Positions 8,112 through 8,460 of a stretch of DNA of 11,155 nt are shown one piece after another (positions within the stretch are counted from its first letter, which is position 1; every line of letters starts with the position of its first letter). Location: IMG/VR virus record IMGVR_UViG_2675903609_000003. One strand, given 5' to 3'. The stretch comes from a virus (Duplodnaviria > Heunggongvirae > Uroviricota > Caudoviricetes). The position numbers were made by a program, and so were the translations under genes. The notes below the pieces were generated by a model, which did not search any database, was not told the origin of the DNA, and saw only the letters and a program-made list of their open reading frames with translations.

Positions 8112-8140
8112 TTGCAGATGTGATGACATATGGTTATTAT
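8112..8140 (+). promoter_or_regulatory. sigma70-like promoter in front of the tRNA array
   Basis: TTGCAG (8112-8117), 17-bp spacer, TATTAT (8135-8140); the first tRNA begins at 8150. Confidence 0.4.
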
Positions 8141-8149
8141 TCTGCCTCC

Positions 8150-8226
8150 GGCCCTTTAGCTCAGTTGGTCAGAGCGAGCGACTCATAATCGCCAGGTCGC
8201 TGGTTCAAGTCCAGCAAGGGCCACCA
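8150..8226 (+). tRNA. tRNA-Ile2 (anticodon CAU, lysidine-type, ileX-like)
   Basis: Cloverleaf with anticodon loop CTCATAA, T-arm GCTGGTTCAAGTCCAGC, 3' CCA; very similar to E. coli ileX as recalled. A/C at pair 27-43. Confidence 0.85.
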
Positions 8227-8227
8227 A

Positions 8228-8304
8228 CCACCACTAGCTCATCCGGATAGAGCATCAACCTTCTAAGTTGACGGTGCGAGGTTCGAGTCCTCGGTGGTGG
8301 GCCA
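8228..8304 (+). tRNA. tRNA-Arg (anticodon UCU)
   Basis: Acceptor CCACCAC/GTGGTGG, anticodon loop CTTCTAA, T-loop TTCGAGT, encoded CCA. Confidence 0.8.
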
Positions 8305-8306
8305 GC

Positions 8307-8382
8307 GCCGACTTAGCTCAGCAGGCAGAGCAACTGACTTGTAATCAGTAGGTCACCAGTTCGATTCCGGTAGTCGGCACCA
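8307..8382 (+). tRNA. tRNA-Thr (anticodon UGU)
   Basis: Acceptor GCCGACT/AGTCGGC, anticodon loop CTTGTAA, T-loop TTCGATT, CCA; one A-C mismatch in the T-stem. Confidence 0.75.
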
Positions 8383-8385
8383 TAT

Positions 8386-8460
8386 GCGGGCATCGTATAA
8401 TGGCTATTACCTCAGCCTTCCAAGCTGATGATGCGGGTTCGATTCCCGCTGCCCGCTCCA
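8386..8460 (+). tRNA. tRNA-Gly (anticodon UCC), glyT-like
   Basis: GCGGGCATCGTATAATGGCTATTACCTCAGCCTTCCAAGCTGATGATGCGGGTTCGATTCCCGCTGCCCGCTCCA appears identical to E. coli glyT as I recall it. Confidence 0.9.

Follow-up and report, generated by a model that had tools for sequence, protein, structure and literature searches.

Cassettes of tRNA genes in the late operon have been described for several lambdoid phages. In the Shiga-toxin (Stx) phages 933W and Sakai Sp5/Sp15, an ileZ-argN-argO cassette lies downstream of the antiterminator gene Q, the late promoter pR' and a terminator, and upstream of the first late genes. For Sp5, the pR' start was mapped by differential RNA sequencing (dRNA-seq) and the terminator tR' by Term-seq, and the dRNA-seq data were reported to show a primary start site for the tRNAs as well (Sy et al., PMC7547250). 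A different set, Asn(GUU)-Thr(UGU), occupies the same slot downstream of Q in phages 21, SfI, Sf6, ST64T, and HK639. A bias toward ACA codons has been reported for SfI (PMC3636060), and the Thr tRNA of phage 21 has an altered anticodon arm and is P2 Old-resistant.

In this study, a four-gene tRNA array was analyzed in the IMG/VR virus record IMGVR_UViG_2675903609_000003 (Caudoviricetes). The whole stretch of DNA analyzed, 11,155 nucleotides, is referred to here as the window; it comes from a lambdoid E. coli/Shigella prophage. The array is a Q-downstream cassette of lambdoid type, of the ileZ-argN-argO kind described in Shiga-toxin phages but extended by a Thr-Gly module. We consider it probable that it is a self-contained tRNA cassette within the late operon, transcribed from its own promoter and by read-through from pR', and supplying decoders for codons favored by the prophage.

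Four tRNA genes on the + strand, spanning 8150-8460, were detected by both ARAGORN and Rfam (family RF00005, gathering score 29). They fall inside the interval given by an earlier note on this DNA, which had been made from the sequence alone, and they carry the four anticodons that it had named:

8150-8226, + strand: tRNA-Ile2-type gene, anticodon CAU, ileZ/ileX-like, labeled Met by ARAGORN and Ile by RefSeq (RF00005, 70.5 bits)
8228-8304, + strand: tRNA-Arg gene, anticodon UCU, argN lineage (ARAGORN; RF00005, 56.4 bits)
8307-8382, + strand: tRNA-Thr gene, anticodon UGU, near-copy of host thrU (ARAGORN; RF00005, 69.8 bits)
8386-8460, + strand: tRNA-Gly gene, anticodon UCC, identical to host glyT (ARAGORN; RF00005, 64.9 bits)

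The genes are 1-3 nt apart, with spacers A, GC, and TAT. All four cloverleaves are intact, the CCA end is encoded in 4/4 genes, and none of the four is a pseudogene by ARAGORN or Rfam criteria. The check with tRNA predictors that the earlier note had proposed thus agreed with its claim (56.4-70.5 bits). No open reading frame (ORF) of at least 50 aa overlaps 8030-8576 on either strand. A relaxed-threshold Rfam search of 7900-8800 returned only the tRNAs and weak terminator-like matches, with no StxS-like RNA. The genes are already annotated as tRNAs in RefSeq; the composition of the cassette is uncommon.

The first gene is not a methionine tRNA, despite its ARAGORN label. The determinants of tRNA-Ile2 that matter for TilS and IleRS are C4-G69, C5-G68, the anticodon loop, and A73. 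The CAU tRNA retains C4-G69 and C5-G68 and has A73, and its anticodon loop is identical to that of K-12 ileX, to which it is ~88% identical overall; identity to Sp5 ileZ2 is ~96%. The metT tRNA has U4, A5, and a different anticodon stem. Relative to ileX, the acceptor-stem pair C6-G67 is changed to T6-A67, which is compensated, and the top pair of the anticodon stem is changed to an A27-C43 mismatch. Because of its likeness to ileX, the C4-G69 and C5-G68 pairs, the ileX anticodon loop, and the mismatch to metT, the tRNA is assigned by sequence to the ileX/ileZ type. It should decode AUA once C34 is modified to lysidine.

The nearest relatives of the Arg(UCU) tRNA are Sp5 argN2 (TCG) and the "Lys TTT" variant of the sister arrays described below. 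It is ~70% identical to host argU, has A20, and shares the loop CUUCUAA with argU. These features place it in the argN lineage of Stx phages with UCU replacing UCG, and it is predicted to decode AGA and, by wobble, AGG. The Thr tRNA is identical to K-12 thrU at 74/76 positions, the sole differences being T16C and T20C in the D-loop, and the Gly tRNA is identical to K-12 glyT over 75/75. Positions 16 and 20 of tRNA are normally dihydrouridine sites. Both D-loop changes are common to all seven Arg(UCU)-type copies; sister arrays hold a C20-only intermediate and the host form. The anticodon loops of all four tRNAs are those of ileX, argU, thrU, and glyT. The identity of the Gly tRNA with glyT had been recognized by the earlier note, which called the other three divergent; this description fits Ile and Arg and fails for Thr.

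The following elements were placed between the start of Q and the first tRNA:

7570-7950, + strand: Q late-gene antiterminator, 126 aa (Pfam PF06530, E = 4e-54; RefSeq annotation in CFSAN029787)
7979-8006, + strand: predicted late promoter pR', TTTACG-16-TATTCT (7979-7984, 8001-8006), by Sp5 homology
8037-8061, + strand: intrinsic terminator hairpin AAACCCGCC-UCCG-GGCGGGUUU followed by UUU, tR'-like by position (fold)
8112-8140, + strand: putative sigma-70-type promoter of the cassette, -35 TTGCAG (8112-8117), 17-nt spacer, -10 TATTAT (8135-8140), by sequence and conservation

With tRNAs at 8150-8460 and the holin gene starting at 8753, the position is that of the ileZ-argN-argO cassettes; the first gene is ileZ-homologous and the second is of argN lineage. 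The window Q is 85% identical to Q of the Sakai Stx2 prophage Sp5, and the post-Q regions align with ~78% mean column identity. The window pR' is predicted from this homology to start near A8013. The placement assumes a 142-nt offset between versions of the Sp5 genome, which we take from the stx2A coordinates of the older record; the 258-nt pR'-to-tR' distance in Sp5 fits this offset. The hairpin at 8037-8061 is strong, is followed by six T, and lies between the Q gene and the tRNA promoter. It is the sole terminator-like structure between the predicted pR' and that promoter, and its homologue in Sp5 is the first hairpin in the leader of the pR' transcript. A simple terminator scan missed it, probably since the stem absorbs part of the T run. 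The placement of the tRNA promoter downstream of tR', as claimed by the earlier note, is therefore reasonable by position, with the terminator upstream of the promoter and pR' upstream of the terminator by Sp5 homology.

The likeness to Sp5 extends to the slot-2 lineage, the promoter hexamers, and the 9-nt gap between promoter and first tRNA, the last two being identical. The window differs from Sp5 in having UCU and not UCG in slot 2, and Thr(UGU) plus Gly(UCC) instead of argO. Furthermore, it has no stx genes and lacks the ~240-nt leader segment in which StxS, a small RNA, and the mapped tR' of Sp5 are located. A clear terminator follows argO in Sp5; a clear strong terminator after the array is missing from the window.

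The -10 element of the cassette promoter ends 9 nt before G8150, the first tRNA nucleotide, so that the leader of a primary transcript may be only 0-4 nt. Hexamers and spacing conform to the sigma-70 pattern (17 +/- 1 bp). The match to consensus is moderate: 8/12 as TTGCAG-17-TATTAT and 9/12 in the scanner's register, TTTGCA-18-TATTAT. The earlier note was right about the site, the spacer, and the 9-nt distance and overstated the match in calling it near-consensus. Conservation was assessed in IMG/VR loci containing an exact 33-nt stretch of the first tRNA, together with reference loci (116 loci, 46 distinct upstream sequences). The -10 is TATTAT in 43/46 distinct sequences and TATCAT in the other 3/46, and 43/46 have a distance of 9 nt to the tRNA. 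In the -35 the TTG is nearly invariant (TTGCAG, TTGCAA, TTGCGG, and similar variants). The flanks vary: at least 10 unrelated groups were distinguished among the 30-nt sequences preceding the -35, and 19 variants among the 9-nt sequences that separate the -10 from the tRNA, though these are nearer to the tRNA than the -10 is. The 9-nt sequence (8141-8149) is C-rich in the window (TCTGCCTCC) and GC-rich in the commonest relatives (CCTGCGCCC), resembling stringently controlled host tRNA and rRNA promoters.

The promoter-tRNA module follows a PF06530 Q at 200 nt in the window and at ~440 nt in Sp5, and an unrelated PF03589 Q at ~930 nt in PhiR47_1, where two ORFs intervene. Because the same module follows two unrelated Q families at differing distances, the promoter travels with the tRNAs and is not pR'. 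The possibility that the tRNA promoter is pR' itself was rejected: the Sp5 pR' region aligns upstream of the terminator, and the promoter is also found behind the unrelated PF03589 Q. The arrangement in Sp5 is TTGCAG-17-TATTAT-9 nt-ileZ, with the same hexamers as in the window. By analogy with this homologue, the source of the start-site data, the window copy would be active, including in the lysogen. The promoter of the host thrU-tufB operon is similar (TTGCAT-17-TAGAAT, a GC-rich stretch, and a short leader).

These data bear on whether the motif is a non-functional chance match, the tRNAs being made only on the Q-antiterminated pR' transcript. The cassette does lie on the late transcript path, with lysis genes downstream that no strong terminator protects, and an 8-9/12 motif occurs at chance frequency. 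A chance match, however, would not explain why hexamers and both spacings are kept while both flanks vary, or why the motif stays with the cassette behind unrelated Q genes. The primary tRNA start reported in Sp5 for the same hexamers (PMC7547250) and the same layout in host tRNA operons such as thrU-tufB also argue against it, and we regard transcription from pR' alone as very unlikely.

Codon usage also speaks for the proposed cassette. Enrichment was calculated as the within-family codon fraction in phage genes divided by that in host genes. The phage sets were the window (17 ORFs, 2,868 codons) and the closest complete prophage (63 genes, 13,224 codons); the host set (72 genes, 28,659 codons) came from K-12 85-135 kb, K-12 4.16 Mb, and the chromosome on either side of the CFSAN prophage. 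The codons read by the four tRNAs gave the following values:

AGA: 7.5x in the window ORFs, 5.4x in the closest complete prophage
GGA: 3.05x in the window ORFs, 2.5x in the closest complete prophage
ATA: 2.5x in the window ORFs, 2.4x in the closest complete prophage
ACA: 2.2x in the window ORFs, 2.0x in the closest complete prophage

In both phage sets these are exactly the top 4 of the 14 A-ending codons, which bears out the enrichment of cognate codons in phage genes anticipated by the earlier note. In the complete prophage, Fisher p values range from 7e-10 to 5e-21. AGG and GGG, also readable by UCU and UCC tRNAs, are enriched too. A general drift toward A- or T-ending codons was rejected as the cause, since the phage genes resemble host genes in GC3 (third-position GC content) and are depleted of six other A-ending codons (AAA, GAA, CAA, GTA, TTA, and CTA). 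The sum of the four codons is 59 per thousand in early genes, 36 in late genes, and 17 in the host. High values were found in regulatory genes of the related prophage: 100 per thousand in the cI-like repressor, 95 in the excisionase, 86 in the integrase, and 80 in the cro-like gene. Because early genes are more enriched than late genes, the bias fits a Q-independent promoter that acts before Q better than a purely late role. The emphasis of the earlier note on late genes is overstated: early and regulatory genes are higher, and the major capsid and tail tube genes are near the host level.

Several observations weigh against a self-contained cassette that benefits the phage through translation. 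The promoter motif is no more frequent than expected by chance (3 sites found in 2.5 kb, 2.9 expected), and the loci used for conservation, being chosen by an exact 33-nt match to the first tRNA, are fairly close relatives. The codon enrichment is correlative, and the whole-prophage counts were obtained on a relative that has only the segment 2782-10715 in common with the window. The four codons make up only 20 per thousand of the major capsid gene and 24 per thousand of the tail tube gene in that relative, near the host level of 17. With so few of these codons in strongly expressed structural genes of the late region, virion production may gain little from the tRNAs. Finally, neither the terminator scan nor folding revealed a canonical strong terminator in the stretch from the last tRNA to the holin gene. 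With an unregulated promoter in front of them, the lysis genes would therefore have to be shielded by some other stop. The means of keeping tRNA-promoter transcripts out of these genes is the main gap in the model.

The region between the array and the lysis genes is structured, and contains or adjoins two features:

8467-8644, + strand: structured leader with hairpins at 8467-8512, 8521-8591, and 8592-8644 (sub-folds), with a T7 run at 8681-8687 after it
8753-8968, + strand: phage 21-type holin, the first late (lysis) gene downstream (Pfam PF04971, E = 5.5e-35; RefSeq)

The segment 8461-8660 folds at -66.5 kcal/mol (z = -4.6 relative to shuffled controls). In our reading of the alignment, hairpins 1 and 2 show two compensatory double changes each relative to phage HK639. 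As the folds suggest, the leader and the T7 run form a candidate region in which transcripts initiated at the tRNA promoter may stop or be processed. A moron, an autonomous insert of promoter, gene, and terminator in a phage operon, would have its own terminator downstream; at that place the window has the three conserved hairpins and the T7 run but no canonical terminator. A tRNA remnant may be present inside hairpin 1, where the interior sequence (GATGATGGGAAATCCCGG) is similar to the glyT variable region and T-arm. HK639 has the structured leader and a Gly remnant in common with the window: an unannotated tRNA-Asn (2401-2475 of locus L129) is followed by a broken Gly pseudo-tRNA and then by the same leader (2478-2800). 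The tRNA set of the Asn-Thr phages differs from that of the window.

Among IMG/VR arrays, the Ile-Arg(UCG)-Arg(UCU) type was found 52 times, Ile alone 31 times, Ile-"Lys"(UUU)-Thr-Gly 14 times, and Ile-Arg(UCU)-Thr-Gly 7 times, the window's own copy included. The seven Arg(TCT)-type copies (six from IMG/VR and the window) are all identical. Arrays of the form Ile-X-Thr-Gly were detected in 601/5,426 complete E. coli genomes (~11%), and the window type (at least 99% identity) in only 10/5,426. The closest sisters are the Ile-"Lys"(UUU)-Thr-Gly arrays of E. coli prophages, PhiR47_1, vB_EcoS-689R5, and phi467, which are ~95% identical to the window from the -10 to the holin gene and have the same Thr-TAT-Gly junction. 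Unlike the canonical UCU loop of the window Arg tRNA, their slot-2 loop is CCUUUAA (UUU, C33), and several have damaged D-arms. The sister slot-2 tRNA (PhiR47_1, 6095-6171 of locus L001; IMG/VR loci L008, L042, and L046) consists of the window Arg(UCU) body with C33 in place of the near-universal U33, and with U73 as discriminator. Several copies contain D-arm deletions or mismatches, and RefSeq annotation is sometimes missing. This gene could represent an Arg-to-Lys anticodon switch, possibly yielding a nuclease-evading tRNA-Lys, or a gene in decay.

An alternative to a role in codon usage is that the tRNAs are counter-defense spares, replacing host tRNAs that are cut by nucleases such as P2 Old, PrrC, PARIS AriB, or colicin D. 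Lambda is blocked by P2 Old through cleavage of the host tRNA-ThrU(UGU), and phage UGU Thr tRNAs, including that of phage 21, rescue cells from it (PMC12445682). The UUU "Lys" tRNA with its unusual C33 would also fit such a function; AAA is not rare and is not enriched (0.9x) in the Arg(UCU)-type prophages measured. On the other hand, resistance to P2 Old maps to the anticodon arm (an altered CNG and a shortened stem), and an extra host ThrU gave little or no protection (PMC12445682), while the anticodon arms of the window Thr and Gly tRNAs are identical to those of thrU and glyT. The "anticodon-loop mutation" signature of evasion (PMC10264068) is absent, 4/4 loops being host-identical, and a counter-defense role does not predict the four-codon match. 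We consider this explanation unlikely for the array, and a specific anti-P2-Old decoy was rejected for the window copy, the Thr anticodon arm being that of host thrU and not an altered one.

Decay has also to be considered, in the sense that the tRNA genes could be relics carried along by recombination and of no present benefit. The D-arm deletions and patchy annotation of sister slot 2, the single broken Gly pseudo-tRNA kept by HK639, and the interruption of related E. coli/Shigella prophages by insertion sequence (IS) elements are what such a history would leave behind. The window copy itself shows no such damage: its tRNAs score 56-70 bits with intact cloverleaves and CCA. The identity of the seven Arg(TCT)-type copies, the occurrence of the Ile-X-Thr-Gly layout in the 601 genomes, and the conserved promoter likewise make a relic extremely improbable.

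The Thr-Gly unit points to the host. The thrU-tyrU-glyT-thrT-tufB operon resembles it in the Thr (74/76) and Gly (75/75) sequences and in promoter layout. In the phage unit, however, tyrU, thrT, and the 116-nt spacer are missing, Thr is separated from Gly by 3 nt, and the flanks are unrelated. Loss of tyrU from the host operon could account for the TAT junction, although 3 nt are weak evidence for it. A Thr-TAT-Gly pair was also detected in Citrobacter braakii ATCC 51113 (4190-4345 of locus L132), in an AT-rich and apparently non-lambdoid context, where it has neither the Ile-Arg unit nor the TTGCAG/TATTAT promoter. Because the pair stands alone there, the Thr-Gly unit may move independently.

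The window is a mosaic. The local gene order is replicative helicase, ninH, Q, the four tRNAs, the phage 21-type holin, a 209-aa ORF, lysozyme, and Rz. The segment 2782-10715 is 98.5% identical to a prophage adjoining mlrA in E. coli CFSAN029787, and 4742-10264 is 99.8% identical to a Shigella flexneri prophage; related E. coli/Shigella prophages are broken by IS600/IS911. The shared segment is flanked by 1-2781 and 10716-11155. The left 2.8 kb is ~98% like Stx2a phages (primase/helicase C-terminus, methylase, and NinB region) and is followed by a second replication module (O-like, DnaC-like, and DnaB-like). No complete E. coli genome covered more than 70% of the window, and an exact-pattern scan of species genomes for the left junction gave no match. 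Two small RNA families scored above the Rfam gathering score on the + strand, isrK at 2820-2896 (58 bits) and C4 antisense RNA at 2921-3008 (75 bits). Situated ~4.5 kb upstream of Q, the pair resembles an antirepressor/anti-Q control module of prophages. Both matches are contained in ORF 2286-3116; in the relative genome they fall within the 5' part of a coding sequence (CDS) annotated as Rha-family, the start of which may therefore be over-called.

From the genes and homologies observed, together with the conserved promoter motif and the match in codons, we propose the following for the self-contained cassette. The sigma-70 promoter at 8112-8140 would fire without phage factors, both in the lysogen and in the first minutes of infection or induction. 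A second input would come from pR' read-through, once Q carries RNA polymerase past the terminator at 8037-8061. The primary transcript is predicted to start within a few nt of G8150 and to yield four tRNAs ending in CCA through cleavage by RNase P and 3' exonucleases of the host. Modification and charging would likewise fall to host enzymes, with TilS turning C34 of the first tRNA into lysidine for AUA decoding. The result would be a boost to four low-abundance decoders, for AUA, AGA (and AGG), ACA, and GGA (and GGG), which are the codons over-used by the prophage, chiefly in early, regulatory, and lysis genes. The cassette itself was probably assembled by joining a phage-lineage Ile-Arg unit to a Thr-Gly unit copied from host thrU and glyT. 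A narrower version, which we find possible though rather doubtful, is that the cassette is mainly a constitutive lysogeny-stage module, with host thrU/glyT captured onto the phage Ile-Arg unit and the prophage control genes as its clients. If that were true, both the choice between lysis and lysogeny and the upkeep of repression would be tuned by the supply of tRNAs, which would also alter foreign-gene expression in the lysogen.

Current understanding is unchanged by these findings. The principle is already established for Shiga-toxin phages, and the four-gene version is a less common one. The cassette illustrates the way in which temperate phages build up and carry with them a decoding capacity of their own, as a portable promoter-tRNA unit that is swapped between prophages with different regulators, is extended by copies of host tRNA genes, and precisely matches the codon excess of the phage itself. 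If the promoter is active in lysogens, each carrier cell gains decoders for AUA, AGA, ACA, and GGA. The extra decoders could affect horizontally acquired genes, including virulence genes, and would be relevant to recombinant expression in such strains.

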